DNA from: Psammoneis japonica
Taxonomy: Eukaryota
DNA: 64,000 nucleotides
Assembly (NCBI GenBank): GCA_008632985.1
Contig: QPGO01000011.1
Span: forward strand, 620,001 to 684,000
Reading direction: 5' to 3'
Shown here: one piece after another, positions 2,306 to 40,973 of the stretch
How the letters are laid out: each line of letters starts with the position of its first letter
Position numbering within the stretch: the first letter of the stretch is position 1
Program-made: the position numbers and the translations under genes
Notes under the pieces: generated by a model
Databases searched by the model: none
What the model was told of the DNA's origin: nothing
The model's input: only the letters and a program-made list of their open reading frames with translations

Positions 2306-2439
2306 TTTCATGTGTAGCGCACAATTAAGACTCTAGTTCAGTTCTAACTGTGCGATCATTTGTGTGGATCCTTTTGCGACTGTTGTTTTCTATCTTGTTT
2401 TCCATTGTAGTGCATTCGCTAAACTAAAACTAAAATTTT

Positions 2440-10835: not shown

Positions 10836-11279
10836 ATGGATACTCCTTCTGATGACGATCTTTTCGTGGCGGCTCGGCTCACGGTCGTCTTTCTGCTGCT
10901 GTACTCCTTTACGTTTGTGAATGTATTGGTGACAAAGAAGCGCCTTTTGGGGCAAGCCCGCAAAGAAAACAAAACCTTCAACCGATACACATCGCCACAT
11001 ATGCATGCTGCCGACCGTCTCAATGGAAACTTTTTAGAATGGACTCCGATATTTCTTGGGTTAGTTTGGTCTCTGGCGGCAACGTCAAACCTATCGCCTA
11101 ACTGCGTTGCGGCCGCTTGGACCTACGTTGCGCTTCGAGCGTTGTACATTGTCTTGATTTTAAGATATGGCGTTTCATCGGATGGAATGAGCAAGGCACT
11201 GTGGGCATCCACTATGCCTGGCTATCTTTGTCTCATGTTCATGGCGTCACATGCAATTCGTAAGCTGCTGTTGGTGTGA
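10836..11279 (+). CDS. MAPEG family membrane protein
   Basis: 147 aa with ~4 hydrophobic helices; motifs ADRLNGNFLEW and YVALRALY. Confidence 0.8.
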   Translation: MDTPSDDDLFVAARLTVVFLLLYSFTFVNVLVTKKRLLGQARKENKTFNRYTSPHMHAADRLNGNFLEWTPIFLGLVWSLAATSNLSPNCVAAAWTYVALRALYIVLILRYGVSSDGMSKALWASTMPGYLCLMFMASHAIRKLLLV

Positions 11280-11369
11280 TAGGAACGATCGAGAATCGAG
11301 ACGATGATTTTGTTTTCGGCATAGGAAGCGTAGGAAATATTCCATCGTATGCGCATGATATTCCGCTTC

Positions 11370-12130
11370 AAGGATTCGGCAGATGGGTGAGACTAGCTGG
11401 ACTCCAAGAAAGCTTGCGGTTGGTACTGGGCTTTGGGGCAAGGATAGCGGAAGGATAGCTTTCAAGCCAGTCCATTGACTGGCTTACAATACACATTACA
11501 GATTTCCTGTCTACTATCAGCACGCAAGAACGCTACTCCTTTCTTCCATGCAACTCCTTCCTTCCATTCAATTCACGGGCACTTTTTGCCTGGGGATCGA
11601 GCTTTGTTGTTGGTGCTTTGCAACACTTCCTATGTCGCGGTTTCCAATCTGACAGTCTGCGGGATTCATGCGCCACCTTGGACCTGGTGCGCATTTCTTG
11701 AATTTTGGTTCCATTCGTGGCTCAATTTCGCTACAACTCAAGTACACATCACCTTAGACTACCTGTACATCATATGACGGTGCCGTCATCTTGTTTCCTA
11801 ATATTCTCAGAAACTTCTTGCAATAGTCCACGAACAACAAACCCACGGCCCATGTTCGTGTGTGATCTCGTGAATGTAGTTCTTATTGGCATCTCCCATC
11901 ATTTGGTGACGAAAGCGTTCGTCTCGATGAGCAGATCTGCTGCAGACGCGGGCAAGGACTTGCTGTGGATAAAGTCAAGACTTCGACCAGTTGATGGATC
12001 CACAGCTTACATGAGTGATTCGAAAACCACATTTGTTTTGCCACGGAAACTCATGTCTCGTGTTCTGCATGGAAGCTGCAGGATCTTGTTGTGAATGGAA
12101 AACAATGGCATCACTCAACTTGGACTCTGC
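11370..12130 (-). pseudogene. Decayed MYND-finger gene (paralogue of 30080-30730)
   Basis: Frameshifted fragments LSCSEIEPRMEPKFKKCA...DCQ...SDWKPRHRKCCKA; aligns by eye to 30080-30730. Confidence 0.55.
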
Positions 12131-13776: not shown

Positions 13777-13949
13777 CGTAGTGATTTTGGGGTTGTGCTC
13801 GCCGCCGAAGGCCGAAGTGAAGGTCCTGATTCCAGATGTGCTTTCTAATCTCTTTCTTACTTGGCTTTGATGCGGCAAGGATTTCCTTGCGAAGGTGAAA
13901 TGACCCTCCGACCGTTAGAGTCATTCCAACCGCCAAAAACAATCCCTTT

Positions 13950-15730
13950 TAGGACGACGGCCCTCCTCTCTGTCTGCAGATTGCTGCGATGCCAAGCGCA
14001 CCACCAAAGACACCATCAACACATCGGCCTCCACGACTGTCTCCCCGGGTCCCCTCAACACAACTGATGCTGCTGATGACCCCTCGCCCCTTTGCAACTT
14101 TTTTCCAGTGACTTTTTGCACACAACTTCAATCCCCCCCACCTGCAGAAACTCTCCTGGCGTCTGTGGATCCCACCACCTGAAGCAGCTTCCTTTGTGAC
14201 CTTGGCACTGTGCAACACCCTGTCCAACATGGCATTGCCACTTCCCGCACCTCTGCAGCCAATGCCCATTGGGACAAGTGGCGCCAGCCACTTCCGTGCC
14301 TCTTTGGCCCTCGACCCAAAAAATCCCGTCATCTTTCTCCAAGTGCTCTTGCATGGGCACCACACCCCACTGATGAAAGATGCTGCATGATTGCTGTTGA
14401 CTGGCCAAACATTGTGCGCAGCAGCGGGGTCCCCGGACCCGCACCACACACATCCCAAGGCCAAATGGACATTCCAACCCACCAAGTTCATTTTTACAAG
14501 AAAGAGAATCCACTGCCCAACCAAGAAAAACCGACCCCTGCCACATTTCTCTTTTGGGTCATGAGTGTTGCTGCCCACAGCATGAACCAGGGAACTCAAG
14601 CGGTTGCCAGCATGATCATCTTGGCCTTTTTCTTTTTGCTTTGCCCTGGCAAATGATGTGCTGCCCCACCCCATCTCCAATGTGTGACACCCTTCCAACT
14701 CAGGGACGTTTGTTTGACCATGGGTGGCTTTTGCCTTGGTGTGTCTGCCGTGCTGCCGACAAGCAACTCAGGGCAGCTGCCCTTGGCTTCCTCACTTTTG
14801 CCACCCAGAAGAACAGTGTTCATGGGGAAGTTGCAGGCCATGGCCACCCTCAGCTCTGTCTCCAACCCATGCCCCAGTGTGCCACATCGTCAAGCATCTC
14901 CGACTGCACGGCACTTTGCCCACACACCACTGGGTGCACATTTCCACAATGACATCTGGTGCCGGGGGGTTTCACCCACTGACATCACCAGTCTCCTTTG
15001 CAATGCAGTCATTGCCATTGGACCTCCCTCTGCTGACCTCGGTTTCACAACCTTGGGCATTTCTGCTCAGCGCATGTGTCCGGCTCTCAGGCCAGCGGCA
15101 ATCTGACAAAATGCTTCAGCACTTGCACCTTCAAGCTGAGCTCATTGTGCACAGTTTCACACATGACATCATGTTGTCTGGAGGCAACTTCATCTTGCAC
15201 CCTGCCAATGCCAAGGTTCCCATGGCTGCTCCTGTGGAGCCATTGACCACCAACACAGCCCACCAGCCGGGTCCCGCCCGCCCCCAAGCACTGCTTGCCT
15301 TGTAAAAACTGCTTGCACTTTGGGTGGTTCTGGATGGCCCAGCCATCCAGCTTGGGACTGGAAATGAGGCTTGCTCAGCCCCTCTGCAAAACCATCCCGC
15401 TCCAACCAAGACCTGCTCACAAAGTTCGATGAAGGTGAGGCGACCCTCCAACTGTCAGAGTCATTCCAACCCCCCGTCATGTCAAAACAATTTGAACATG
15501 CTTGTGCAAGGCTTTGAACAACAGCCTCACTGGTGCCTTTCTCTCATTCTTCCAAAGAGCATGGCATCAGCAACCAACCAGACAGTTTGGTCACTCCCAC
15601 CTCTCTTGCCCTCTGGCTGGCCTGGCTGTCAAGCGCAGGACTGGTGGGAATGAGGCTCACCCACCAGCAGCCGCTCAGTGAAACCATCCCACTCCAACCA
15701 AGACCTGCTCCAATCACCCCAGGAAATGCA
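13950..15730 (+). mobile_element. Degenerate tyrosine-recombinase (DIRS/Ngaro-like) element remnant; TpA-depleted island B
   Basis: MIILAFFFLLCPGK (cf. AFFFLLRPGEY), LTFATQKNSVHGEVAGHG and DKMLQHLHLQAE (cf. DxMLRYLH) are tyrosine-recombinase motifs. Frameshifted and nearly TA-free. Confidence 0.65.
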
Positions 15731-19772: not shown

Positions 19773-20979
19773 ACTTCATTGTTTGTTTACTTGGTCGCTT
19801 CTGCTGTCTATCGTTCTATGTTGCAAGCACCATAGCTGCATGCCTACACGCACAAAGCGAGCGCCACGTGCTGCACATCCAAGTTGCTTTTGTATATTTC
19901 AAAAAGAAGCAACAAACAGTCTCAAACTTCCATTGAGCGGTTCTTCACCAATGCTAGTAGCCGGGCATGTTTGTAGAAGATTGTGATGAAGCCTCAACTT
20001 CCAAATTCAGTTCAGAAAATTTGGATTTTCTGCACCCCACCAAAGACCCCACATCTGAGATCGTCCATTGGACTTTCAACCGAAGGCCCCTCCCATCCGC
20101 ACTTGTTGGATTCAAGTGCTGTTTTAGCTTGTCGGCATGTGCTGACAACTGGCAGAACACATGCATTCACTTTTTTTCATTCTGTTGCTTGTGTTCACAA
20201 TGCTCCTGACCGTGGCTGGGTTTTGCCCCATTGCAATCCATCCTGCCTTTTGGGACACCCCACTTTGCACTTGCCACAGGGCTTGTCAAGACATTCTTGC
20301 TGANNNNNNNNNNGGGGGGGGGGGGGCAAGTTCATGACGGGCCTTGTTGGCAAAGAGCCAACTGCACTTCTTGTTGGCAATGTCAGCACGTCAGCACCAA
20401 TTTTTTCACTGGGTTGCAAAGCAATCCAAGCACATGTCTGGGGACATCCATGATTTGGGTCCTGTTCCTCAAAGCAGTTTTTGCCAATTTCAAAGTGGGT
20501 TTTTGTTGGTCTTGTTGATCACAACATTGCCCTGCTTTCTCAAATCTGGATGCAATGGCAATTGAAAGCTGAAATGTTCCAACTTGAAGATGTGATTTTC
20601 TGTCTCAACAGACAAGAGGGCTCTGTTGTTCACAATTTTTCATTCATTTCCATGTCAAATTCTTTGTGACAGCTGCTGAACATCTTGTGCAGCACTGCAT
20701 GTTGAGCACAAAGAATGATTCCAAAAAAAATTGTTGTCACTTCTTTCAATTTGCAGTTTGCCATTGACGCTCACAGCAAAACAACAAAATGCTGTTTCCA
20801 GGCACCATCCCACCCACTCTGTTTGTGCCATTTTACCAAGTTTGCCAACATGCCATTCTCTTGTCCTTTGTGTGGCTTTAAAAATGATCATGCTGTCTCA
20901 AGTCACATCAGTCATGGACACTGCTTGGCTTCACAGATGCAGTTGGCCATGAGAACAAAGCCTTGTCACTGTCCTGTTT

Positions 20980-21255
20980 TGACAGAAATTGAAGGCAAAT
21001 GGCAAGAATTCAAACAATGACTCCTTGCTGCTTTTTAAACAGCAGATGAGTCTCCGCTCAGAGACCGTTGCAGGAGCCGAAAGACGTGTAAGTCGGCATG
21101 ATCGGGCTACTGTCATCATTCTTGTGAGCCTTGTGGCTCGAAAGCAAACTACATCGCGCGCGAACGCGCGGAACCAAAGCACACAAAACTGTGTGCGGCA
21201 AACTAAACAGCGCGCGATACTTCGCGCGCATCCAAATCCTGTTCAAATCCTGTCA
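20980..21255 (-). repeat. 3' LTR of copia-1
   Basis: Direct repeat of 27803-28078 with 12 substitutions. Confidence 0.97.
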
Positions 21256-24200
21256 CTCCCCAGTTTGCTTGAGGAGCCACAGAAACAGATTCGACTTCGG
21301 ATGGGATGAAGTTCCAGAACATAAGAGGGCGGAGAAGGTCCCAGATTTGGGAGTGACCCCAATGCTTGCTGAGAATGTCAGCAGGATTGCGGGAGCCCTC
21401 GATGAAGTGGAACTCAAGGCAACCAGAGGCAATTGCCTCACGCACACGGTGGAACGATAGTGCGGTGTGTCGCTTGTGTAACTTGGAGTGCGGGATGGTG
21501 GCACTGTCTACAACCGACTTGTTGTCACCGAACATGTAACTAACATTACGGATCGGGACGCCAAGGCAGCGCAGGGTGATGCGCAGGTCGACAATCTGCT
21601 CGACACAATTCCTTGCGGCAACAAATTCAGATCCGTAGGTTGCAGTCTCCACGGTGGCTTGTTTCTTGGAGAACCAATCAGCCGGGAATTTGTTGAGGAA
21701 GTGGAGCATTCCCATGACAGAGCGTCCGGTGAGCATGCAATGGTGCAAGTTTGCATCGACGTAGTGGGTGGCAGTGACGAACTTGCCAAGGGGCGGTGGA
21801 GCGTCCTTCGGGATCATCTCTTCTGCTTCACCACACACGGAATGCATCCATTCATAGGCCGGAGCAGGGAGATCCGAACAGTCGGGCTCTTCCGTACGAA
21901 CGCGGAGAGCACCGTGTCGCATCTTGGAGAGGCACCCACAGACGCGTTTGGCACGATCCAAGTGGCCTTGACGGGGCGCAGCTCGGAAGCTAGAGAGTGA
22001 CATGACAGCCGTGGTAATGTCAATTCGACCAAGGGACACTGCCCATTGGAGTGAACCAACAAGAGACTGGAACTTGTGAATGCCATCGGGTCCCAGTAGT
22101 TCGGAAGTGTCCAGTTCAGGGTGGTCACCCTTCTCTAGAGGTGACAGGGCGTTGGTGGCAGGTTTCTCCCCAAACAATCGGGCGTAGCTGTCGACCATGC
22201 GCTCGATGTACTTGCGCGGAGACAGGCACAAGGTTCCGTCGGGGTCCCGGGAAAAGTCGCAACCCAGATGGAACTCAATGGGTCCCGCACCCTTGAGCTT
22301 GAACTTGCACTTTTCCGTGAGAGTATCGATGAAAGATTGAGGGTCCTTCATGGCAATGGCGAGGTCATCCACATAAACGCCAATGTATTCATAGTGGTCG
22401 CCGTTCCTGCGCATCCAAATGTCGGGTTCGGCGCGGCAGGGGAAGAAGCCTTCAGCTCGCAGGCAGTCGGCGAAGCGCTCGTGCCAGCGGAGACCGGAGC
22501 TGCGAAGTCCATACAGTGCCTTGTGGATGACAAGGATGTGTCCCTCGAGTTTGCCAAATTCGGGTCCAGCTACAATGTAAAGCTTCTCCTTGGTGGTGGC
22601 TTCAAGGCAGGCATTGCCAATGTCGGTGGCCCATGTCTCCAGCTCGTTGAGTTCGGCCAGGAAAATCATCAGCCGAAGGCCACGGAGGGAGACTGCTCCG
22701 GAGTAAACACTGTCGACAGGTACATCCGTGAGGTGCCCGTCGGCTACGAGTCGTGCCTTGTGGCGACCGTCGTGTTTCACGTCGAACACCAGGTGCACTC
22801 GGATCTTCTTGTGTCCCGCAGGAGGAGTGGAAGACTTGAAGGGCCCGCAGTCATGGAAGACTTCGTATTCGTCGAGTTGGTCCATCTCGAGATTAGTTGC
22901 GTCTCCCCACTTGCGGTTGCCGTTGCGTTCGTCTAGTGACATGGCGTGTTTGTAGTTCCGGGGAACTTTGTATCCGTACTTGTAGCGAGGTGCAGTGCGG
23001 AAGGAGCGAAGCTTGGCTTGGTTGGCCATGCGAAATAGCTTCTTTTGGCGCCTCGCGATAGTGCGGAACCGCTTCCAGCCATCCGTGTCGAGGAGTCCGT
23101 TCTCTCGTGCATAGATGGCACAGGTGACGGGGTCGTCCTTGGCGATGATGGCAAGAGGCTCGGACGTGATCTCCCCACTTTCCCATTCAAGCATGATGTT
23201 GTAGCTTGAGCCTTTCCAGGTTGGGTCGTGAGGCTTCAGAGGTCCTTCGTGTGATGCGATGCGTCGAAATTTCCAAATGGTGGTGTCTTCGTCTTCTTGC
23301 TCAATGTGATTCATGATGTCATTGCAAGCAAGGACTTCCTCGTATTCGTCATTGTTGACAGAGCAGACGAACTTAGTGAGCTCGGGATTGCCGTTCACTT
23401 TCCATTCGTGGTCTTCGACGGCCTTGACGATGCGAGCTCTGTGGCGTTGTCCATCCTCTTGTGGCTGCATGAGGAAGGTACGTCCAATGATGTCTTGCGG
23501 ATCGAAAACTGGCATCTTGGGTGTCCTGATCTCCCCATCAGTAGAATCGACGGGGTTGTCGTCATGGCGAGATTTGATGATGGGTTCAGGTGGCTCCCCA
23601 TCAGGAGGATCAAGACGCAGGTTTCGAACGGCAGGATCGGGGCAGCGGAGCGAACGTTGGACCGGGAGGATCTTTTGAGTCTCGTCAGATAGGATCTTGA
23701 AGGTCATCTGGTGGCCGACGTGCTCAGCAATGCCAACAAAGCGTCCACGCAACTCACGGGATTCGGACGGCCAATCGGAGTCATCGAGGTGGAAGTGCAC
23801 TGGTTCCCACCAGTGAAAGCGAAGCAATGGGCTGATGTCCGGGGTGGATCCAGTGAGAGTCTCGAGGGGCGTGCGCCAGTGGAGACGTGGGGACGCTGTG
23901 TGGTTGAGCATGAAGCACACGCACATGAGCGCCAGGAGCCATGTGTGGGCGGGCGAACCAAAACGGTCCATGACAGTGTTCGCCATGCGCTTCACGGTCT
24001 GGTGTCGACGTTCGGCAAAGTTTTGGTGTTGCTGGTGAGGCTCACTTTGCCAGCTGGAGATGAAGAGGGCGCGCAGGATCCCGAGCACTTTGTTGCTGAT
24101 CTCAACTTGAGCACGGTCGCTAATGAGTTTGGATGGTGCACCACGTTCACGGATCTGATCCTCGAGTGTGTTGACAAACTCTTTGTCCGTCTTAGTGCCG

Positions 24201-26876
24201 TAGACGTCAGTGACGGTAGACTCGGTGCCAACAAACAGTTGGGCGCTGGTGCAACCAGAGTCGACGGCCGGGGTGTCGGCAAAACGGTGTCAGTGGCGAC
24301 AGGCTCGTTGCGGCGGTGCACATTAAGGGCGGGGTTGGGTGATTTGTAGGCCTTGCGAAGGTGTGCACCGGCGGGCATGCGGGCGTACTGCGTGGTGCAG
24401 TCAAAAGTACGACGGACCGCATCGGCAGGTAGGAAGCCAAAGCAAGGCCGAAGAGACTCGAAGGGGGGGTCCTTGGGCTTCACAGTGCGCTCCGGAGGTG
24501 GAACGTCAACGCCCGTGGGGTCACTCGCATGCAGATGACACTCGTAGAACACGTCGTCGTTCGGAATGAGGTGATCATCGAGGGCGGACGCGTGATCGTC
24601 AGACAAGGAAGCGGACAAGATGGTCTCGTTGACAACGACACGGTGACGGCAGTTGCCGCATTCGTCAAATGGGTTGGCAGTGGGATCGTCCTGCAGGTCA
24701 GAGATCGCGTCGCACCACTGGTCGTCGTCAGTGACAGAGTGATCGAGGACGGAAGGGTCCCATGTGTCATCACCGGTGAGGATGACATGGGGCAGGGTGT
24801 CCCATTCGGCGTCAGTGCAAGGGCGCATGGCAACATAAGGCAGGCCAGCCTTGATGTCAATGGGGATGACATGGCCATCAGGAGTGGCAATACGTTGCAA
24901 GCCGTTGGGCACCTTGACAGAGCGATCGTTGACATCCTGTTTGCACCATTCGAGCTGGCCGCAGGAATGGATGGTCTTGCCCTTTCCCGTGCATGCGCTG
25001 ATGGAGGATGGCGATGACGGGACCACGCTGGGTCTCAATGACGGCACCAGCGGTGACAATGGGGATGTCCACCAATTGATGATCGTCAATGCCCTGAACG
25101 TCGACTTGGCGAGAGGTGCGTGCGATGACGCGAACGTCGTCGCCAGCAATGCCGCCGTTGGCCCCACGATCGACTAGAGCGCCAGTGCGTGTGGAGCGAT
25201 GAGCAGAGGCAGAGTAAATGACATTGTGGTTGTCAACGCGGCGGCAAGTGCGGCCGTTAAGTTCCATGTTATCTGCAGAAGCTGGCGGGGTAGAGGAAGC
25301 GGCGGATGGCCCGGTCGACTGGCATTGGGGGCTTGGTTAGGAGACAACAGACGTTGCAGATCACCGGGTGGCAGTGGCTTGCGCTTGGTGAGGTGCGCCA
25401 GGATGGGATCATCCGAAGTGGCGTCCACATGTGCAGCGGAGTCACCACAGTCAGCAGGAGTCGTGTTGGACAAGTTGACATCACCGTCACTCCCAAGGTG
25501 TTGGTCGTGAAGGTTGGCCGTAACAGACTCATGGCAGTTGCTGGCTCGCGGGTTGCGGGGAGGCGGGCGAGAGTGCTCAAGGATGATCGCCTTGGAGGAA
25601 TCGGGCAACGAATCCCAGAGCCGTTGGTGGTCGGGAGGGAGACGTCTCCATTGGACACCGGTGAGGCTGGGACCACGGGTGTGGGCAGCATTGGCTTGAA
25701 GGACGTCAACGTCACTGTCAATGTCGTAGAACACATCGTCGGACGGTTCCTCGGAGCAGACGTCGTGGGCGTGTGTGGCGCGTCGGGGAGCTCGAGGTGT
25801 CGTCTTGGGTTGAAACGTGCTGTCGCACTGAGCTGCCGCGGAGAGGAGCAAGCCACAGCATTGATCGCATGTGAGGCTCTTGCCACTCTGCGTACGATGC
25901 TGATCAGCTTGGTTCTTGACAGCACGGAGTTCCTCGACAGGGTGCACGGCATTCTCGAGCATGACGCGCTTCTGTCCTTCAGAGAAGTGGTCGCTGGCGG
26001 GGATGAGTGCCTCGCACTTGCGCAACTGATCTTGCCAATGAAGGATGAACCCGTGGGTCGGACCGTTCCAAGTGCCATCACCAAGACGTGCGGTGGTGAG
26101 GTACGTGAGCAGGGTGGAGGACTCGATGGATGCACGGGTGGAGGCAAGCGCGCATTCAGACAAGGAGCGGCAGACGGTCTGTGCGTCAGAGGACCCCACA
26201 TTTTCGCGAATGAGAGCCTTGCCCTTGTCGGTGAGAAGGATGCGTTCGAAGACGGCGAACATGTGCTTTTGCTGTTCAGCAAAGAGCAGTTTGTCTTCGG
26301 GGCTGGTCGGTTTGTACGACGAGTCTAGAATGCACTCGACGTCTTGGGCACGGGCTTGTGCCACAAGTGAGGTGTGCCAAGTGTGCCACTGCTTGTCGGA
26401 TTTGAGAGCCGTGAAAGCGGTGGGATCACGCTTGATGCCTCGCTTGAAGTCTCGCACCGGGTCGCGTGCCTTGGTCGGGTTGGTGACATGTGGAGGTGCA
26501 AGGGGTGAGCTGCCGATGGACACAGAGGACATGCAGTCCGGGCTGAGGCGGCAGGCAAGGAACTCGTCATGCGTGAACAAAGAGGAGTCGTTGGCAACGT
26601 CAAGACCTTTGTGTGCTTTGACAATGTACAGACTGGGCTGGTGCTGCCAACATGTTCTTATAACCACGAGGCAAAGGGATTGCATTGGTGCCGTTGTCGC
26701 ACACAAGCGAGTCGATTTGGGACGGCATGAACGTGAACAGTTCCTGATGCGAGTCCGTGCCGTCTTGGGCCAAAGCCAAACGAAGAGGACTCCCAGCACC
26801 TTGGGCAAGCACGGTTCCAACAACGTGCTCGAAACCATCGATTTGTTGCTGACGAGTGAGAACCATGGTAGACAAA
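21203..26876 (-). pseudogene. Copia-1 gag-pol polyprotein (frameshifted)
   Basis: gag (RDFKRGIKRDP...), protease ALVDRGANGG, integrase SEPHQQHQNFAERR, RT KALYGLRSSG and YIGVYVDD, RNase H YVDA...GDNKSVV...NPADILSKHW. Confidence 0.9.
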
Positions 26877-27802
26877 AGTGGTGTCAGGACAATCAATTCT
26901 GATTGGGAAGCGAAGGTAGACTTGAAACTCGGGTGAGAACAGACTTGACTTGAAATGGACTTGACTTGAAATCTTGAACTATCTTAAAATCAGAAGTCGC
27001 CGGGCTTTGCTATCCCGTTCGTTGTTGAGTGCTAAACTTCCCATCCGGTCCGTAGAGTTGTGCCGGCACGTCCGAACCCGCAGCCAGTGGCGCTTTGGGT
27101 TGCTTGCGAGCGGAGCAGCGGGTTGTAAACCCCTGCAGGCAAGCTGACCAGAGGTGGACAAGACCCCCGAACCGTTCTTATTTTATGTCGGTTGGATTTC
27201 CCGATCAGGCTGGCCAGTTGACGCAGGCGTTGGGCGCTGTGGACGAACGAACAAACGCGGGAAAAACACCCTCGCCCCAACGCAGGCTGCAATCACGGCT
27301 GCTTGCTCTCACAGTCGTCCTCGTGGACCTAGCAGAACTGTAGAGCACCAGCAGTCCGGGGTAGATCAGGTACAATGGACTCGGTGTGCTTGTAGAGTGG
27401 CAGCAAAACCGCATCCGAAGAGTGGGTACAAGTTCTTGGCCGTGAAGATATGCATATATGTATGTCTTCAGCGACGAAGGTCCTTGAATGTGTAGGGTTC
27501 TTGACCGTTAACCGATGAATGGGTATATCAAGGGATGAGGATCAAGGATAGACTTGGATATGACCGTTGAATGTATGTCTTCAGCGATCAAAGGTAGTAT
27601 AATCAATCCAGATATTCAGCGGTAAGGAGACTTGACGGTGACGTTAAATTCCTGCCGATGCCTGGTATTGAACGCGCGTAGACTTGCCGATGTATGTAGA
27701 ATATATACGGAGGTCCACGCAGAATTGAAATAGCGTCGTCGGTAAATCAACGACGACGATGGCGGTTGCTCAATGGGTTGACAATGAGCAAGACTGTTAA
27801 TC

Positions 27803-28078
27803 TGACAGAAATTGAAGGCAAATGGCAAGAATTCAAACAATAACTCCTTACTGCTGTCTAAATAGCAGATGAGTCTCCGCTCAGAGACCGTTACAGGAGC
27901 CGAAAGACGTGTAAGTCGGTATAATCGGGCTACTGTTATTATTCTTGTGAGCCTTGTGGCTCGAAAGCAAACTACATCGCGCGCGAACGCGCGGAACTAA
28001 AGCACACAAAACTGTGTGCGGTAAACTAAACAGCGCGCGATACTTCGCGCGCATCCAAATCCTGTTCAAATCCTGTCA
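27803..28078 (-). repeat. 5' LTR of copia-1
   Basis: Direct repeat of 20980-21255; retains 16 TpA sites. Confidence 0.97.
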
Positions 28079-28199
28079 TGTTTGCCACAAGGGTGGGCTG
28101 GGCTTTGATTTGGAAGATTCTGCATTTGCTCATCTTTCTTGGCATTGCAATGGAGGTGGCTCTGATGAAACATGACACACTCATCCAAAGCAATGAGAA

Positions 28200-29000
28200 A
28201 GAGCATCCAACAGCCCATGAGGGCTTTGCAGTCAATGGGAAACAGCTCAAAGGTTGATCCCTTGGTCAGTTGGTCAGCAAGTTGACCAGCAGAGCTGATT
28301 GGCTTGATCTTGTTGTCCAAATGTTCCACTTTCAAGCAATGACAGTGACATGGAATGCCAACATGCTTGGTCCTGGGGGTGAGCTTTGGCATGTGTGCAA
28401 GCTGGAGGCAGGCAGCAATGTCTTTGTGCACAACTGAGGGAGGCAAGCTGGTTGAGACAATGAGAGACTTGTCAGTGCCTGCACTGGTGAGAGCAAAGGC
28501 CATGGAATGTGTTGCACAGGTGGCATTTTGGGTGGGCTGCACATGAGCATGCACATCAATTCTTTTTTCAAAATTTCATGAGCTGGGGTGAGATTTTGCA
28601 TGCCTTGGGAGAGTGCGGCAATTGCAGAGAGCATTGCAAGGGTCCACAGCTTGGACAACCAAAGAATTGGATGCCTGCTTTGGCAAATGACACAGCCGGT
28701 GCAAGACTTGACACTTGTGAGATCTTGTCCATTTTTCAACACCAAAAAGTCCTGCAAAGTCTGCGCCCACATGATGATCAACTTGCTGCTCCTCAGTTGG
28801 CTCTCCAAAATCAGCCCCTTGTCTGCAGCATCCTTGTGGCAATGCAGGACTTGCTTGGTGGCAGCAGTGCAGGATGCCCTTGGATGATTGCAAGAAAAAT
28901 GAGCAACTTGATGGGACGTGCAGGCGACATCTGGGCAACTGTTACAGCCAGATGCAAAATTGGCAATTGACCTGTGATTGCAGCAGACTGCCCGTGCAAA
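28200..29000 (-). mobile_element. Older copia RT/RNase H remnant adjoining the copia-1 insertion
   Basis: PDVACTSHQVAHFS, GADFAGLFG, PKLTPRTKHVGIPCH and QLADQLTKG; heavily degenerate. Confidence 0.75.
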
Positions 29001-29094
29001 AGAATGCAGCCACTGCAGCAGCCACTGCAGCAGCAATCAATGTCAAGGTGTGATTGCTGGAAAACACATGTGACAGTGTCAAAGCAGTGTGGAC

Positions 29095-29320
29095 CTTGTC
29101 AGCAGGAAAACCAAACACCAAAGCAGGTCCACTGACAGCAAATGTGGTGATGGAGTTGGGTTCTTTTTGATTGAACCAGCCTGTCATGGAAGAAGCACAA
29201 CAAAAAACAGCATCCAGTTTTTTTGTGAGACAGAAAGCATCAAAAACATGTGGGGAGGGCAGTTGATGCTCAAGTGTGTCAATTGTTGCAGAGACAAAAC
29301 ATTTTGGTTGCCTCATGTCC
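29095..29320 (+). repeat. TpA/CpG-depleted copy of a dispersed sequence also present at ~42225-42340 and ~43640-43735
   Basis: AGCAGGAAAACC...GGAGTTGGG...GATTGAACCAG...AAGCACAACAAAAAA is shared with 42.2 kb; TTTTGTGAGACAGAAAGCATCAAAAA...GACAAAACATTTTGGT is shared with 43.65 kb. Confidence 0.75.
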
Positions 29321-30079
29321 CAAGTCTCAGCACAGTTTCCCAACCAGCTTGCATGTCAGCTTCCATGGGTGCAACCACCACACAAGGAACACAATGGCAG
29401 CACTCATGTTTTGGCACATGTTGCAATGAATGAAGCTGGAGCTTGGGGCACAGCACTCCTGTTCTCCCCAGAGTGCTGACATGTGCTCTCTGCTTCCTTT
29501 TCTTTTGGCAAGACCCTGTCAAAAACCAGGTTGATGTCCCACTTGAGAAGAGAGTGCAAAAAAAACCACACCAACTCATTAAAGTCCTGCAGTGAAAGAG
29601 CAAATTCTCAGCACAGAGTTGCTCGTGGTGCTGAATGGTGGTGCAAACAAACACAAGCATGCCACCAGTGTCCAAATGAGCTGGGGTTTGCTGGTTTCTG
29701 AGGTCAGTGAAGAACAAGAACCTCACTTTTTTGTCTCATTCTCCAGCAAGCTGCTGCTTTGGCAGCCCTTTGACTCCCATTCTGAGTGGCGAGTCTTGCC
29801 AGTGCATCCATGTGTCACATTGCATGTGATGAGAACAGCATGGTGAATGCTGTCACTGCAATGATGGCTGCAACAGAAAAATTGAGATGACTTTCAACTC
29901 AAATTCTGCTTGGTGCACAGCCTGTCCATTGAACTTGAAATGAAGAAAGGTCCATGGTGTCACACATGATTTGGGCACTGTTGTTGGTGTTTCAGGAGTG
30001 ATCAAGAGTCAAGATGTTGTTTTTGTTTTCAGCACAGGAAGAGGAGGAGATGCTCCATTGCACACACATGGCACCCCAC

Positions 30080-30730
30080 TTCAAGGAATGGACAGATGGG
30101 CAAGACTGACTGGACTCCAAGAAAAGCTTGCAGCTGATGCTGGGCTTTAAAACGAGGGTGGCTTGCTGTTCTCAGTGCTCAAAACAGATTTCCAGTCTGC
30201 TGCAATGTCAGCAAGCAAGAGTGCTGCTCTTTTCTTTCACACAATTCATGGACACTTTTTGCCTGAGGATTGAGCTTTGATGTTGGTGCTTTGCAACACT
30301 TTTTCCAGTCTGGGGAGCAACGGTGTGCCACCATGGTGCATTTCTTGAACCCAGGTCCCGTGCATGGCTCAATTTTGCTGCAACTCAAGCACACGTCACA
30401 TTGGACTGCCTGCCCATCACCATGTGACAGTTCTCTCATTTTTTCCCCAACATTCTCAGAATCTTCATGAAGAACAGACCTGTGGCCCATTTTTGCACAT
30501 GTCTCATGAGTGCAGTCTCAGCAACATTTCCCACCAGTTGACAGAAGTGTTCATCTCAATGAGCCAGGTCTGCTGCAGAGGCAACTTTGACCAGTTGATG
30601 GATCTGACATGAGTGACTCAAGAACTGTGTTTGTTTTGCCACAGAAAACTCATGTCTTGTGTTCTGTGTAGAAGCTGCCAGATCTTCTTGTGAGTGGCAA
30701 ATGATGGCATTGCTCAACTTGGACTCTGCT
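30080..30730 (-). pseudogene. TpA-depleted paralogue of the MYND pseudogene at 11370-12130
   Basis: Colinear blocks, e.g. CTGGACTCCAAGAAA, GTTGGTGCTTTGCAACACTT, GACCAGTTGATGGATC and CTCAACTTGGACTCTGC. Confidence 0.75.
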
Positions 30731-33230
30731 GCAAAAAAATTTTGGGATTTCTTGGACTTTGAACAACAAGTTGTGTGCAGCCTCCTCCCCCTTTTGAGCA
30801 CAAACATGTGAGCTTTCAAAAAAGGGCCATCTTGTTGAATTGCTGAATGATTGCAGTGGCTGCCACAGATGTCACATCAACAGTTTCTTCATCTAAATCC
30901 ATTTGAAGATCACAGGAGGGCAAGCTGTACATGAGAGCTTGAGAGAGTGCCCAGTTGACACTGAAGGAGTCCTGTTCAAACAAACATGCGGCAAACCATC
31001 CAACACACTCATTGTCCTCTGCATCTTCAATGCTGTCATCCACAAACTTGCACCTGCTGCAGTGATTCTCAGCCTTTTGTCTTTCAACCCCAGTCTTCTT
31101 CATTTGAACACTTCATCCAATGCTCACAAATGGTTTCAGCACAGATGCCAAGGTTTTTGTCCATGTCTGGAAACTGACGATGCTGCTGTGTGTGGTTGTT
31201 CCAAATGAGCCCAATTGGAGTGGGGCACTCAAGATGTCATCCAATCTGCTCAAAACCAACTTTGTTTTCCCATGAGGATTGCAACCATTCAGACAGAAAC
31301 AAGCCGGGCTTGGCAACAACAACACACAGTCTCCATGTGAAAGCTTTCAAACCCCTCACTTTTTGCAGCAGAGACACCAGCTTGAGAATTCTTGCCACAC
31401 CAGCACAATGAGATGACCAACAAGTGGCCACGACTCCTGACTGAGGGCTCTCTTGCCAATTTCTCCACAATGTGTGCAAAATCCACAACAGATGAATGCC
31501 ACTCAACTTGTGAGAAGGCAGGATGAGCCCCTCCAGAAAAAAAGAAAATTTCCAAAGCCTTTTCTTCACAGTCATCTCCTGACACAACCAGGAAAATCTG
31601 GTGTCCCCACACAACTGAAATGGCACAATCCAAAGCCTGTTGAGGCAATGGACAAATTGTGTCAGTCCCAAGGTGAGGGAAAGTCATGGCTTTTTTTAAG
31701 AGTCATGCCGGGAAATGTGGGCACGTCCACAAGCATCATCGCACATGATGAAGAAGTCCTCTGCTGGCAAATCCCTGTGACTTGCTTTTTGAAGATTGAC
31801 CTTTGCCAGTGCAAAGCTGACAGTTGAGAGGTTTTGTTCAGCATGAAGATGACAACCGTGAGCTTTTGTTTGGCTTGAAGCTGCCACGATGAAATTTTCC
31901 TGGAACGTTTGACATTTTGAAATTTGCCAGAAACGAGGGACAGATGCATTGGGGAAAGGGCCCAAGGGGGACTGCCGACTTATTTTTTCCGCATTTGTCC
32001 TAAAATTGGCGATGTGTTTGAATGCGTTCATTTGCATTGTCAATTTTAAATGCAAGAATTGTTCGATCGCCCACGAAAACAAGAACATCACGCACCGCGA
32101 TTGAAGCACAACGATGACGGCAATTGCGCTGTCTCTCAAAATTGGCCCGGTGGCACAAGGGACAAAAGCACACAAATCAATCTGCACCACATGACGACAA
32201 TGAAACCAATGAGTGTCCCTCGTGAGGTGACACTTTGCAACTCACCGCTCGTCGCGAACATTGTCATTGTCGCTCGTGATTTTGTCGTGTCATTTTCTGT
32301 CGCGACACGTCAAAAATGCAGAAAAACCCGGAAAAGACGTGCGGAAAAAATGAGCCAATGGGCCGCCTTGTCTGTCTGTCGCATTGTGCACGCAGCGAAC
32401 ATGACAGCAACACAACCTGCAGCATGCATGCAACACAACAGCATCAACACCTCTGCATCATGCAGTGCAGTTGTGAGAAGATCACATGACTGCGATCAAC
32501 ACAGGCGCGGAACATGCCTTTGGGGGCCCAGCTGCGAGGAATGGAACTTTCCAACCGGAAGGATTTGGTCCATTCCCAGTGGAACGGGCAGACCTCGTTG
32601 ACAAGATTTTGTGACAGGCAGACCCATGGAAATCGACTCACATCAATGGATGCAAAGGAGCTGGGAAGATGACTCTGCTGGTGCAACTTGGTGAGAAACT
32701 AAGCTCGAAAAACAAGGAAGTTTACTTTTTTGACAGCGCAACAGATTTAAACCGAGAATCTTCCATCACTTTCGTGCGAGAATTGGTCCATTCCAAGAGG
32801 GAAGCTTTCATTCTGGTTGACAAGACTCAAACAATGTAGATGCTGCTCCCTTTTTCATTCTCCTCAAAAACAAAGACAGCCATCAAATTGTGACAATCGG
32901 CGCCAGCATTCCGGAATTCCAAACAGCATCTGCAAGATTCACACTCAAAATTGGCGCCGAACGTTTGTTCTTGGGCTCACCGGAAGAGCTTGAAAGCAAA
33001 GGGGTCATCAGTTGTTTTTCAAGCAAAGCAACGGTGGTGGACGCACAGAAGATCCGTGACCTTCTGATTTGTCTTTGCTCGTACGTTGGTGGTCACATCC
33101 ATCCGCTCATGTGGCTGGAGGAGTGACTCGTCCCCAGACTAGAACGCGAGTCAGTGGCCCAAGTGGCAGAACACTTCACATCACCCAGATTCCGTCAGGA
33201 AGAAGATTTCAAGCTTGTGTCTGAGCGAAC

Positions 33231-33701
33231 AGTCAAAGCTCGCATGTCCACGCAGCTCCGACTGCCTTCCTAACGTGTCGACTGGATGTCCACTCCAGAT
33301 CGATGCCTCAGGCAGAATGCAAGCAGACAGAATGCACCAACGAGCAGCAACGAGCATTTGGTCTTTCACAAAAGTGCCAGTGACCAAATTGCAAGCTGCC
33401 TAGACTGAATCTGCTGAATGCACCCAAACAGAGGTTGATCCGCAGGTTTGCACCAGAGACCAGTGCAAACTTCAGGGTTGGCCACATTCACAACAATCAT
33501 CCAAATGCTGCTGAACCAATCTGTGGTTGGTCCAACATCTGTGCAACACCTGTGATCTCCAAAGCACCGCCCATGATCCCCAAAGCATTCGGCTTGAGAA
33601 TCGAGTCGACGTGGCGCGAAAAGAATTTCAACAAGAATTCCGACTGACAGAAGCACAGACACAACAGAGAATCTGGGTCGGTGGACAGATGAACCATGAC
33701 T
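33231..33701 (-). repeat. 3' LTR of copia-2
   Basis: Direct repeat of 40503-40973; differences are mostly TG/CA and CG/TG swaps. Confidence 0.93.
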
Positions 33702-36700
33702 CTCCCTCTCATTCACAGATTCCAGCAACCAACAAGAAAATTGCAAACGAGAAAGCTCACACAATTGGTGCAAGTTCAGAGCAAAGCTCCCACATCTTGA
33801 CCGAGCCACAACACACAACAAACAAAGGAAGCGATGCTTCCAAAGTGCTGCCACCCTTGGACCTTCAACCGGTTGTTCTCGAAGAGCTCTCGAGTCAAAG
33901 GCTTGGCAAGACAATCGGCAAGTTGCTCGGCCGATTCCACCTTGATCGCATTGAACTCATCACAATGCGACCAGAACCAATGCCACTTGACAAGAAAATG
34001 CTTGGCGCGATTGGTGATGCGGTGGTTGGCAGCCAGGCAGCAAGCGCCTTGATTGTCTTCGAACACACGCGCATGAACCGAAGTCCTGAGATCTTGGGAG
34101 ATGTCCAGGGTAGAGACGATCTCAAGGAGCAGGTTCTTCAAAGGCAGGAGAGTCCAAAGAGCACAGGAGGCGGCTTGACACTCGGCTTCGAGGGTGGAGC
34201 AGGAAACAGCTGACTGGAGCTGCGATTTCTACACCAAAGGGCATCCACTGAGAGTGATGATGTGTCCGGTGCGAGACCTGATGGAGTTTGGATCAGAATC
34301 TGCTTCGCAGCAATGGAGACCAGCAAAATCAGCATCAACCCACAAATCTCTTCAAGTGGCGGACCAGAGTCTTGACGGCAGTGGCGCGTGACTGCTTCGG
34401 GTTGCAATTGAAGTGTGCAACCTGACTGACGGCAAGGGAAATGTCAGGACGGGTGTTGGTGGACAAATGTGGAAGCACTCCAATGACGGAGGGATGGCTC
34501 CAGTCCTCCTGCATGGGATCTCCGTCTGCATCAGTGCCGAGGGCTTGGGACGCCGCGGGGAGCAAGTTTGGTTTGCCATCAACCAAGCCGGCAGCTGACA
34601 GGATCTTGTCAATCAACCCCTTCTGTGTCAACTTGACAGTGCCATCGTCTCGCCTTTCGAACTTGATGCCCAAGAACTTGGTAAAACTGCCCTCCTTCGT
34701 CAATTCAAATCCTTTCTCGTGCAGCTGAGATGTCAACTGATCAAGGGTGGACTCCTGCGCTGTGCTGATCCCGCAATCGTGACACACAGGCAGACCATGC
34801 AATCATGGTGGAGCAGGAGACATTGGTTGCACTCGCTTTGGATGAAACCCAAGTCCAAGAAGGCTTGCAGACAATGTTCATGCCACAACTTTGGAGCCGA
34901 AGAGAGTCCACAGAGACTCTTGACGAGCTCAAGACAAGTCTCAGGTCCTTTTGTCGAGCTGAAACCTCGTGGAAGATGAATCCAAACTGGTTCTTCCGCA
35001 GGAAGTGCTGCTTGAACGAATGCAGACTGGAAATCGGCGGATGCCACATGCCATCCAAGAACAAGACTCAATGCCAAAAACACTCGAACTGCACTCCAGG
35101 CCACAACCGGTGCATGAGTGTCAAACAGACTTCCTTCCTGCAGATCGCCCCAACAACAGTGGCGAGCCTTGTGCTTCTTGATCTCGCCTGAAGGTGAGCA
35201 CTTGCGACGAAATGCCCAAGTGCCAGGAAGGATCTTGGTTTGAGCATCAGATGCAGGTGCCTCGACCCACTTTCCTTGATGGACGAGTGCTGCAATCTCA
35301 ACCTCAGCCGCTTTCAACCACTTGTCGCGATCGGAAGAGCGCATGGCCTCGTCCCACGATGGTGCACCCGGATCCTTGACTTTGCGCGCCGACGCCCAAT
35401 GTGCGGTGGGAGCAGTCATGGATGTGTTGCAACCGTGGTCAAACTTGTGTGCACAATGGAAATCAACAAAGTGGGACAAGCATCTGTGTCCCTGAGATCC
35501 ATCACATCCAAACTGCTTGGGTGCAGTGCGACTCTGGGTGGAACGACAAACTGGGGTTGGAGAGGGGCGTTGTGCACTGGGTGGAGCCACAGGTGGCAAC
35601 TCCCTCTCTTGACCGAGATCCGAAGAAAGACTTCAAGGGGCAGGAGGCTCCCTCTGAGGACTTGGTGATGGATTTAAGTTGGCAGCAGGTGCTCTCTCCC
35701 TCTGAGGCGAGTCTGAAACCACAGGTTCAGCAGGAGACTCCAAAGGAGGCACAGACTCCACTGCAGGGACCGGAGGTTCCACAATGGGACTCGAGGGGAC
35801 CTCAGGAGAAGATGCTGGTGCCTGAGTGGCCAGAGGAGGGACCTGTGAGGGTTTGGGAGGCGACGGGCGGGTGACGGTTTCTCAGATTTCCTCGGAGCGG
35901 CGCTCACATTCAGGGCATTCTTGATGGATGTCGATGTCAGCCTGCTCTTCATCATCCACAGTGCATTGATGCACACTGTCTCTGAAGAGAGACGTCCATT
36001 CCAGAGACCCAATGGCAGGTGACGAGCCAGCATCGGCAGGAACCGTCGCAAACCAATCATCAAAAACGACATGGAATTGTGGAGTGATGGCTCCCGTTTC
36101 AAGACTCAAGACTGGCAGGACTGACAAGGCATGCTCGGGGCTGAGTCCCACACAGACATGCCAACTCACACGGGGTTTCCACTTTGGCAGTTTCTTTCCA
36201 TCGGCGAGAGTTTTGTCAAGAATGTAAACAGGGCACCCCCAAACATGACAATCCTGGAACCGAGAGTGGGGGTCATGCGTCTGGGTGAACACATCCTGTG
36301 GACTTGGACCCGCAGATGGGTCTGGCATCGCATTGTAAAGCACAACAGCGTGGTCCACAGCCAAAGGCCAAAGAGTGGCATCCGCAACATCAGGCCAATG
36401 AATCGCCGTGTGCAACATCACACTTCTCGCGATCGACATCGCAGTGTGCATTGCTTGTTCACAAACCCCATTGTGATGGTGAGCTCCTGCACCGGCGTGC
36501 TTTGAAACTTGTGCAAAAGACTCCAAGTGAACTCTGAAATTGGCCGACGTGAATGCCTTTCCTTTGTTGCTCAAACATTCTTGGGAAATGACACCACAAT
36601 CACGACAATGGGCCTCAAACGCGTTCTTGGCCGTCAAAGTTTCATGGGTGTTGAGGTGAGTTTGATGTTGAACGTTGACACAACCGGATGCATGATCCAC

Positions 36701-39700: not shown

Positions 39701-40502
39701 CGAACTTGGTTGAAAGTCTGGCAACGCAGCAGGCCTTGCTCTTCTGGGCGGAAGAAACGTGGTGGGAGCGATGCTGATTCGGAGACGTTGGACTGGAGTT
39801 GGGAGTTTCTAGCCTGGACCAATCAGCCTTGGGTTTCCCACCAGTCCAAGCAACTTTCTCAGTGGAGCCAATGGAGACAACCCCCCCCCATCTTGGGAGC
39901 CTTGGGTTTGTAGACCTTTGTCTTCGGAATCGCCACGGCTGCCACAGCAGCCATGGCCTGAAGAGTGCGACGTTCGTCGTCCGTCACACCAGAGCTTGCG
40001 GCGGGCTCGTCATCATCCGAGTCGTCATCCGAATCGTCTGGGCGATGTTCCAAGGGCGGAACAGGCTTGTTGTCTGGGTCATTGGGGTCCTGAGGTGGTG
40101 GATTATCCTCCGGTGGAGGTTGATCCTCAGGAGGCTGGTCCTCAAACACTTCGGGGTCGTCAGCCATGTCCGACAGCGCGCTTGAAGCTGTCAAGTTGGG
40201 CCAGTCATCTGGGATGTTCTCAATCAAGGAGCACGAGCTCGGAGAACTCTCTTGGGTCTCAGGAGGGCCACGGGGTGGAGCAGGGCCTGAGATGGTGCAC
40301 GCGCAAAATCAACAACAAACCTTCTGGTGGAACCAGCCATCCAGCTGACAGAGTCAGGCGCAGCACTTGATGTCAAGAGCATGGAGCGCAGCCAGTGAGG
40401 AGCGCTGACAGCATCAGAGCCATAGATGGGGTTGCTCTGGTTTGGGCGTCCCCAACCGGAAGTGTAGAACGTGTTAAGTTGCCCCAATTGGGCAAACCAA
40501 CC

Positions 40503-40973
40503 AGTCAAAGCTTATGTGTCCATGCAGCTCTGAGTGCCTTCCTAATGCATCGACTGGATGTCCACTCCAGATCGACACCTCAGGCAGAATGCAAGCAGAT
40601 GGAATCTGCCAACAAGTGGCAATGAGCATTTGGTCTTTCACAAAAGTGCTGGTGACCAAATTACAAGCCACCTAGACTGAATCTGCTGAATGCACCCAAA
40701 CAGAGGTTGATCCACAGGTTTGCACCAGAGACCAACACAAACTTCAGGGTCAACCACATTCACAACAATTGTCCAAATGCTGCTGAACCAATCCATGGTT
40801 GGTCCAACATCTGTGCAACACCTGTGATCTCCAAAGCACCGCCTGTGATCCCCAAAGCATTCGGCTTGAGAATCGAGTCGACGTGGCACGAAAAGAATTT
40901 CAACAAGAATTCCAACTGATGGAAGCACAGACACAACAGAGAATCTGGGTCGGTGGACAGATGAACCATGACT
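40503..40973 (-). repeat. 5' LTR of copia-2
   Basis: Direct repeat of 33231-33701, same length. Confidence 0.93.

Follow-up and report, generated by a model that had tools for sequence, protein, structure and literature searches.

Loss of conserved tyrosines in copia retrotransposons of the diatom Psammoneis japonica points to TpA-specific hypermutation

We analyzed a 64,000-nt stretch of the genome of the diatom Psammoneis japonica (GenBank assembly GCA_008632985.1, contig QPGO01000011.1, positions 620,001 to 684,000), hereafter the window, and found two copia retrotransposons with long terminal repeats (LTRs), copia-1 and copia-2, that have lost TpA dinucleotides (TA) and, with them, tyrosine codons. 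An original prediction, made from the letters alone, had proposed that conserved tyrosines of these elements were systematically replaced by cysteine and histidine, the two products of a transition at the TA of a TAY codon, and that this fixed the direction of the change as TA loss. The direction held up in the polarization of the Tyr columns, in the differences between LTRs, in a pair of paralogous segments and in the codon states of other genomic copies, and the Tyr-to-Cys/His pattern is the coding-sequence footprint of TpA-specific hypermutation. Coordinates are those of the window, and dinucleotide contents are given as observed-to-expected ratios (o/e). The named relatives of both elements came from Nitzschia and Fragilaria, and the best named relatives of an HDAC open reading frame (ORF) near copia-1 were diatoms, with 73–86% identity.

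Copia-1 is a complete Ty1/copia insertion at 20980..28078 on the minus strand, recognized by its LTR pair, a target-site duplication and its reverse transcriptase (RT). The 5′ LTR (27803..28078) and the 3′ LTR (20980..21255), both on the minus strand, are direct repeats of 276 nt with 95.7% identity that start with TGACAG and end with CTGTCA, giving TG...CA termini, and the insertion is flanked by a perfect 5-bp duplication, TGTTT, at 20975..20979 and 28079..28083. Between the LTRs lie three ORFs of the minus strand: a gag ORF (25174..26883) with an in-frame TAG at 25174–25176, a middle ORF (23992..25173) putatively covering the protease and the N-terminal part of the integrase, and a pol ORF (21203..24289; 1028 aa from stop to stop) with the RT and, putatively, the C-terminal part of the integrase and the RNase H, with a frame change between the latter two ORFs near 24281. 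These pieces were collinear with full-length homologues such as P0001. In a Pfam scan of them, the RT matched RVT_2 (PF07727) with E = 1.7e-27 and 97 bits against a cut-off of 31.6, and no protease, integrase or RNase H domain was matched.

Read evidence was taken from contigs of public sequencing runs (four runs from one sample and one study, among them run X1). One contig of X1 (record 1, 4617 nt) runs from 20974 to 28079 without copia-1 and with a single copy of the target-site duplication, and represents the empty site; it differs from the window by 10 substitutions in about 4.5 kb. The sample therefore has an allele lacking copia-1, and the insertion is a recent one, either polymorphic or hemizygous. 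The frame breaks of copia-1 are missing in part of the family: 19% of the X1 depth has one base more after 24281, and 37% has one more after 25309. The first of these breaks (24281–24290, minus strand) falls in a conserved Tyr codon (homologue consensus TVYSDTP), where the extra base of some other copies, absent from copia-1, would give TGT (Cys).

Copia-1 as a whole is partly depleted of TA (o/e 0.385), with CG at an o/e of 0.98. Along the element, TA o/e is 0.76–0.99 in the first ~900 nt, comprising the 5′ LTR and the leader, which are untouched, and drops at a sharp boundary at about 26900–27200. From gag to the integrase it is 0.07–0.25, and TA is nearly cleared except for two spared patches; the gag ORF is the most depleted part (0.08–0.23), and the region of RT and RNase H and the 3′ LTR are intermediate.

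For the protein-level analysis, we aligned the copia-1 pol ORF with 120 homologues of 55–68% identity using MAFFT and considered as conserved the 442 columns with at least 80% conservation, 22 of them Tyr. Copia-1 departed from the consensus at 28 of the 442 columns, the homologue median being 30. These departures were strongly concentrated, affecting 10 of the 22 Tyr columns and 18 of the 420 other columns (Fisher p = 7.5e-8), and the enrichment anticipated by the original prediction was thereby recovered. Six of the 10 Tyr columns now hold Cys (TGC or TGT) and one His (CAC), with Phe at two and Trp at one. In a leave-one-out control, the count of Tyr-to-Cys/His replacements was zero in 104 homologues, one in 14, two in one and 11 in the last, P0087. 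With P0087 excluded, the 163 non-Tyr residues found at conserved Tyr columns of the remaining 119 homologues included 100 Phe, 31 Trp and 14 His, and none was Cys, so that the homologues do not share the Cys replacements seen in copia-1. The Tyr content of copia-1 pol is 2.04%, compared with 4.30 ± 0.44% in homologues (z = –5.2), and Cys (z = +3.3) and His (z = +2.3) are in excess. When the consensus was relaxed to a 50–60% majority rule, the count rose to nine Cys and four His.

All seven copia-1 peptides originally quoted were found within the pol ORF, and most of them place Cys or His where the homologues have Tyr. Among the conserved columns are codon 561 (TGC, 22607..22609) in DIGNACLEA, with Tyr in 119 of the 120 homologues (99%), codon 786 (TGC, 21932..21934) in KRVCGCLSK (97%), codon 908 (TGC, 21566..21568) in TLRCLGVP (97%) and codon 322 (TGC, 23324..23326) in VLACNDIMNH (96%), to which are added codon 819 (TGT, 21833..21835; 99%), codon 123 (TGC, 23921..23923; 92%) and codon 165 (CAC, 23795..23797; 88%), all read on the minus strand. 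At the other Cys of KRVCGCLSK (codon 784), at residue 804 in EPDCSDL and at residue 979 in KHWGHSQ, Tyr is found in 60, 68 and 72% of homologues, respectively. The claim was weak for DANLHH, where residue 849 corresponds to Tyr in just 42% and to Met in 35%, and for the final His of VLACNDIMNH (residue 328), an ambiguous position with His in 40% and Tyr in 35%. The tyrosines of the YVDD and LYGL motifs were kept, as was codon 529 (TAC, 22703..22705, minus strand). A BLAST pile-up of homologues yielded 74 conserved columns for the middle ORF and none for the gag ORF; in the middle ORF, the two conserved Tyr columns now read CAT (His) and TGC (Cys).

The direction of change is also visible in the types of replacement. 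Those that lose a TA within the codon (Y>C/H, I>M/T, V>A and L>S/P) numbered 15 in copia-1 pol, with no case of the reverse types, whereas homologues had on average 3.1 TA-loss and 2.1 reverse replacements. The types caused by A>G at the first codon position occurred six times in copia-1 and their reverse once, compared with 5.7 and 5.8 in the homologues.

The LTRs, which are noncoding, provided evidence on copia-1 itself. They differ at 12 of 276 positions, and 10 of the differences are a TA in the 5′ LTR facing TG (four) or CA (six) in the 3′ LTR, leaving two positions with changes of any other kind. Of the TA sites, 10 of 16 were lost in the 3′ LTR and 0 of 16 in the 5′ LTR (p = 2.5e-4), so that the two now have 6 and 16 TA, and the CG count is the same in both, 21 and 21. 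As the 3′ LTR has lost 10 TA still present in the 5′ LTR, hypermutation acted on the copia-1 insertion itself. We saw no pattern by eye in the bases flanking the lost and kept TA at the 16 LTR sites.

The copia-1 family is highly repeated in X1, with 15,435 contigs and a summed word depth, which does not equal copy number, of 40,000–127,000 compared with 56–125 on the adjacent single-copy block. At codon 908, Cys in copia-1, other genomic copies read TAC or CAC, owing to T at 21567 and/or G at 21568. Copia-1 kept Tyr at codon 529, where the Cys form (22704 T>C) makes up 64% and the His form (22705 A>G) 24% of the word depth in other copies.

Among 80 pol relatives from metagenomes, TA o/e was 0.70 ± 0.13, and the value of copia-1 pol, 0.32, is below 79 of the 80. 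Over 21 conserved Tyr positions, 73 of these loci had no Cys or His and six had one, the exception being L033 (pol match 2–1975), in which Cys or His has taken the place of 6 of 16 conserved Tyr and TA o/e is 0.31. Among the proteins, P0087 has 11 of 21 conserved Tyr changed to Cys or His and the remaining 119 have 0–2. L033 and P0087 are thus two unrelated public records of the copia-1 family with the same footprint. Other metagenome loci (L048, L064, L052, L008 and L004) have a CpG o/e of 0.16–0.26 and an ordinary TA o/e of 0.45–0.72. Since many relatives are poor in CpG yet not in TA, CpG decay and TA loss are separable across hosts and the TA process is specific to some hosts.

Copia-2 (33230..40974, minus strand) is an older copia of a distant lineage, with no protein-level link to copia-1 at 1e-6 in a tblastn search of the ORFs of the window against the window. 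It retains 25 TA in 7.7 kb and is saturated for TA loss (TA o/e 0.06, CG o/e 0.61). Its LTRs (33230..33702 and 40502..40974, minus strand) differ at 43 of 473 positions, including 14 sites with CA facing TG and eight with CG facing TG or CA, and just four positions differ outside pyrimidine–purine (YR) dinucleotides. An ancestral TA resolved separately in each LTR would account for the 14 CA-versus-TG sites. From the same LTRs, the mutation rate of TA sites is estimated at some hundreds of times that of other sites, an indirect indication that the rate of TpA loss may lie orders of magnitude above background.

Copia-2 was compared with its own set of homologues. Its 17 conserved Tyr columns comprise six Cys, eight His, one Trp, one remaining Tyr and one overlap artefact. 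The predicted Cys of KSLCGL (34904–34921, minus strand), a TGT codon at 34912, aligns with Tyr in 98% of the 42 homologues at that column, and LADCLAK is present at 33902–33922 (minus strand), in a column below the conservation threshold. Other replacements in copia-2 were L>P (five), V>A (three), L>S and I>M (one each), T>A (six), I>V (three) and M>V (two), and CpG-type changes were also present (R>H/Q/W/C, 10).

Depletion of TA extends beyond the two elements. In 57 of the 128 500-nt windows of the stretch, TA o/e is below 0.2, and there are sharp-edged blocks with TA at 0.02–0.14 and TG and CA at 1.5–2.0, the genes between them having TA at 0.5–0.8. Block A (2300..6000; TA o/e 0.07, CG o/e 0.17) begins just past a zf-MYND ORF, and block B (13900..15200) has TA at 0.045 and CG at 0.38. 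Copia-1 is inserted between block C (19800..20979), which is depleted of both TA and CG, and the single-copy block D (28079..31500; TA o/e 0.025, CG o/e 0.08), and the two blocks are continuous in the empty-site allele. Block C includes a run of 10 N (20304–20313), a scaffold gap near the insertion. A further depleted block (31501..41500) contains copia-2, and block F (54500..59500) has TA at 0.02–0.14 and CG at 0.17–0.70. Across the TA-depleted units, CG o/e falls from 0.98 in copia-1 to about 0.6 in copia-2 and 0.08–0.17 in the oldest blocks, a gradient indicating that TA loss comes first and CpG loss later.

One segment of block D (29950..30729) has an undepleted paralogue in a region of normal composition (11237..12130). 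None of 26 TA was kept in the depleted copy, where 12 became TG, nine CA and none CG, and 1 of 37 CG was kept, with 17 changed to TG and 13 to CA. Counted on both strands, A>G affected 24 of 51 sites at TpA and 10–15% after A, C or G, and C>T affected 31 of 74 sites at CpG and 11–15% elsewhere. That no TA became CG suggests that each TA site was hit once. Ordinary divergence and indels were also present in the depleted paralogue blocks. A second old dispersed repeat links 29098–29315 with 42225–42338 and 43637–43737; as in each repeat pair just the block D copy is depleted of TA and CG, the depletion follows the locus and not the sequence family.

The loss of TA has consequences for reading frames. 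The original prediction that it removes and never creates TAA and TAG stops follows from the genetic code and agrees with the nearly TGA-only stops of the depleted blocks: block D has 185 TGA against eight TAA and TAG together and block F2 has 112 against five, and in normal sequence the two are about equal. The many overlapping long ORFs of the window exist because TpA loss erases TAA and TAG.

We also noted other features in and around the blocks. Block F contains a Cyclin_C fragment (E = 2.7e-5) at 54925–55578 on the minus strand, within a 218-aa ORF that has one Tyr, 12 Cys and seven His; hypermutation may thus also have struck a duplicated cellular gene. Short AT-rich direct repeats on a CGTTGAAAG core (6922–7543) have normal composition and adjoin block A, and an 18-nt tandem repeat in 10 copies (7797–8039) encodes in one frame a repeated Ser-Pro-Lys motif. 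A 1084-aa ORF without a Pfam match (48171–51425, minus strand) lies in a region with a strong AT skew, –0.24 to –0.28, and a moderately low TA o/e of 0.27–0.5.

The process was observed to be specific to one dinucleotide, to run in the direction of TA loss, to act after integration, to be regionally confined and to proceed at a rate far above background. With considerable confidence we attribute it to a TpA-specific A:T-to-G:C hypermutation that takes place at the DNA level, after integration, in mobile or silenced DNA, and that is regional and strand-symmetric. In the proposed mechanism, the TpA step would be recognized in resident DNA within confined domains, and one of its two A:T pairs would be converted to G:C with no strand preference. 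The product would be TpG or CpA, and the process would end once the TpA is gone, with no second hit at the same site. The plainest coding footprint would be TAY (Tyr) turning into TGY (Cys) or CAY (His). Copia-1 would have been caught part-way, with about half of its conserved Tyr codons and 10 of the 16 TA of its 3′ LTR lost and its 5′ LTR and leader untouched, whereas copia-2 and several other blocks would have reached saturation; in the same domains, CpG would then be lost more slowly, to TpG or CpA.

The outcomes on the sense strand, 16 TG and nine CA in copia-1 (p = 0.23) and six Cys and eight His in copia-2, are in line with the symmetry. The original description of the change as A-to-G at TpA stands for the dinucleotide and the direction and does not extend to the damaged base, A-to-G on one strand being T-to-C on the other; as TpA is palindromic, adenine deamination and thymine-directed change look the same. 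The process is probably enzymatic, with an adenine deaminase acting on DNA as the leading candidate, and probably serves as a genome defence in which missense damage such as the loss of Tyr would disable elements while their ORFs stay open. Besides the loss of Tyr, copia-1 is also broken by the in-frame TAG and the frame breaks. A broader reading, which we put forward tentatively and judge likelier to fail than to hold, is that of an enzymatic DNA-editing defence common to diatoms and chlorarachniophytes and possibly ancient in the SAR supergroup (stramenopiles, alveolates and rhizarians). Targeted to chromatin domains, it would edit TpA in silenced mobile DNA on either strand, by deaminating the adenine or modifying the thymine, and act within the lifetime of a still-polymorphic insertion while sparing the 5′ LTR and leader; elements would be disabled by missense change alone, Tyr to Cys/His first, with TAA and TAG erased and long ORFs kept. 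In this reading, the later CpG loss might likewise be the work of this machinery and not passive methyl-CpG decay.

Several observations weigh against this attribution to TpA hypermutation. Three of the 10 Tyr replacements, the two Phe and the Trp, are not single steps from TA to TG or CA, and Phe is the commonest natural replacement at conserved Tyr columns. The Ile, Val and Leu changes that the original prediction expected (I>M/T, V>A and L>S/P) are nearly absent in copia-1, with one I>M, one V>A and no L>S/P, and became clear only in the saturated copia-2. Lost and kept Tyr showed no significant clustering along pol when runs were counted by hand. Among 41 ORFs of the depleted blocks, Pfam gave one match, Cyclin_C, and no mobile-element protein, so that the targets are shown to be mobile DNA for the two copias alone. 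In 16 of 40 differences between the window copy and other genomic copies, the window has TA and the others TG or CA, and these 40 are the best supported of 1053 and hence no unbiased sample. Tyr is part of one of the two patterns used in the metagenome search, so that the set of 80 relatives is biased towards copies that are not hypermutated. The assembly may have been built from the same sequencing runs, which therefore do not independently exclude a base-calling artefact. The LTR differences could also have arisen if gene conversion with an unmutated copy had restored the 5′ end. Finally, only the LTR differences can be dated to the time after integration, and the pol codon changes are compatible both with change in place and with inheritance from a mutated source copy.

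The last point leads to the alternative that survives best, possible in our view though unlikely: that most of the Tyr-to-Cys/His changes in pol were inherited as subfamily marks, the same TpA process having hit ancestral source copies that continued to transpose, perhaps in trans. The Cys form of codon 908 makes up ~60% of the family word depth, and the insertion, young as the empty-site allele implies, already has 13–15 such changes. None of the 80 relatives, with a maximum of 0.549, reaches the GC content of copia-1 pol, 0.557, an excess greater than the loss of TA alone would add. The ~60:38 split of Cys and His forms is, however, also expected from independent hits, and the 10 TA lost from the 3′ LTR and retained in the 5′ LTR place the process on the copia-1 insertion. 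Inheritance would in any case alter only the timing and leave the process and its direction unchanged.

A slow chemical decay is less probable still. In this explanation, a base modification at TpA in silenced chromatin raises the transition rate, as 5-methylcytosine does at CpG. To our knowledge, no base modification of this sort is known at TpA. TA and CpG loss share their domains and their products, and diatoms methylate their transposable elements (available sections of PMC9998398). A gradual process is nevertheless hard to reconcile with copia-2 LTRs that are saturated for TA loss and yet, outside YR dinucleotides, differ at just 4 of 473 positions, or with the disappearance of 10 of 16 TA from one copia-1 LTR and none from the other. 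The implied rate, hundreds of times the background, and the sharp boundaries within a single element look more episodic.

We consider A-to-I editing of RNA, fixed in DNA by reverse transcription, to be very improbable. Both elements studied in detail are retrotransposons, and ADAR, the model for such an activity, prefers a U before the edited A, as noted in the accessible text of a preprint on the chlorarachniophyte Bigelowiella natans (Mettrop et al. 2026, bioRxiv 10.64898/2026.01.13.699255). But the LTRs, copied from single U3 and U5 templates, are expected to be identical at integration and differ at 10 TpA; TG and CA outcomes both occur on the sense strand (Cys by A>G, His by T>C); and single-copy blocks that are not retroelements lose TA likewise, as does the paralogue pair. 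In B. natans, according to the same text, the changes arise in resident DNA.

Equally hard to credit is an artefact in which modified bases in repeats are miscalled in sequencing or polishing and TA and CG are read as TG or CA. TG or CA could result at random where a symmetric modified site is read from one strand or the other, the window contains a scaffold gap, and the runs, possibly the assembly's own data, have no recorded library type. Against this, the 4.6-kb contig from the public runs repeats the depleted flanks with 10 substitutions, and the unrelated records P0087 (11 of 21 Tyr) and L033 (6 of 16) bear the same footprint. CpG is intact in the partly mutated copia-1, the depleted blocks show ordinary divergence and indels, and the B. 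natans result, as far as the available preprint text describes it, was based on Illumina data (10.64898/2026.01.13.699255).

Lineage-specific amino-acid change of the ordinary kind, or relaxed selection, acting without any special mutation process, has a negligible probability, since a normal total of departures (28 against a median of 30) is outweighed by their 18-fold concentration in Tyr columns (p = 7.5e-8), the absence of Cys at those columns in 119 homologues, the 118 of 120 homologues with no or one Tyr-to-Cys/His change, and the noncoding evidence of LTRs and paralogues. GC-biased gene conversion, which is not TpA-specific, and UV-induced TA photoproducts, which are not regional, were dropped.

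Mutational genome defences have been thought of as essentially fungal, in the form of repeat-induced point mutation (RIP), or animal, in the form of APOBEC and ADAR. If TpA hypermutation is confirmed as the cause of the patterns described here, the process would turn from a curiosity into something more widespread among marine protists, and the enzyme could be sought by contrasting genomes that have the signature with those that lack it. It would also explain why about half of the window is TA-free sequence rich in spurious long ORFs, and counts of Tyr-to-Cys/His changes, together with TA o/e, would become easy markers of the age and class of dead elements in diatoms. Gene predictors need caution in such regions, as DNA free of TA can have no stop codon other than TGA. 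An adenine editor of DNA that occurs naturally and is specific for one dinucleotide would moreover be of interest for base editing.

Among known systems, methyl-CpG deamination resembles the later stage of the pattern, the older blocks having lost CG to TG and CA (CG o/e 0.08–0.38), and transposable elements of diatoms are CpG-methylated according to the accessible part of PMC9998398. It leaves TpA alone, however, whereas in copia-1 half of the TA is gone and CpG is intact; with a CG o/e of 0.98 in copia-1 itself, methyl-CpG decay cannot explain the finding. RIP of ascomycete fungi is likewise a mutational genome defence that causes sharply bounded transitions at one dinucleotide in mobile DNA. 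RIP converts C to T mainly at CpA, thereby making TpA and stops and lowering GC (textbook knowledge; available text of PMC7296669), whereas here TpA is destroyed (o/e 0.02–0.14), TAA and TAG are removed and the GC content of the copias is above background. RIP also mutates both copies of a duplication (same sources), whereas in our paralogue pair 11237–12130 is normal and 29950–30729 is depleted. The RIP enzyme RID has a relative in diatoms, DNMT4, to which no function is assigned in the accessible part of PMC9998398.

ADAR and APOBEC3 of animals share with the pattern the deaminase-driven clusters of transitions in retroelements and, for ADAR, the preference for a 5′ U. Their substrates are RNA or, before integration, minus-strand cDNA, and their changes differ between the strands, being G-to-A in the case of APOBEC, whereas the changes here are strand-symmetric, occur after integration and also affect DNA that is not of retroelement origin.

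The closest known process is that of B. natans, for which the available text of the preprint (10.64898/2026.01.13.699255, the source of all statements on B. natans below) describes an A:T-to-G:C hypermutation that strikes integrated viral DNA and is restricted to TpA. Two integrated viral regions acquired 231 mutations in mutation-accumulation lines, of which 230 were A>G or T>C, all at TpA, at a rate of ~6e-7 compared with 3.5e-10 per site per generation, and the bursts were confined to some lines. The genome contains clusters depleted of TpA and rich in CpA and TpG, RT and DDE domains are over-represented in these clusters and in low-TpA coding sequences, and the enzyme proposed is an ADAT2-like deaminase. 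The available text mentions neither diatoms, CpG nor retrotransposons; our literature search turned up no account of a TpA-specific loss in diatoms, and the supplementary tables of the preprint might list further taxa. In both systems TpA alone is hit and becomes TpG or CpA depending on the strand, the changes are confined to foreign or mobile regions and the rate is orders of magnitude above background. The host there is a rhizarian and here a diatom (Stramenopiles), and the targets identified are integrated viral DNA there and LTR retrotransposons here. The evidence consists of de novo mutations there and is comparative here. TA o/e is 0.45 in a region of nucleocytoplasmic large DNA virus (NCLDV) origin there, as opposed to saturation at 0.02–0.07 here, and the loss of CpG in older blocks is seen here, the term being absent from the preprint text at hand. 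TpA hypermutation, previously described in one rhizarian alga, thus appears in this diatom in a more extreme form, acting on retrotransposons and probably followed by the loss of CpG.

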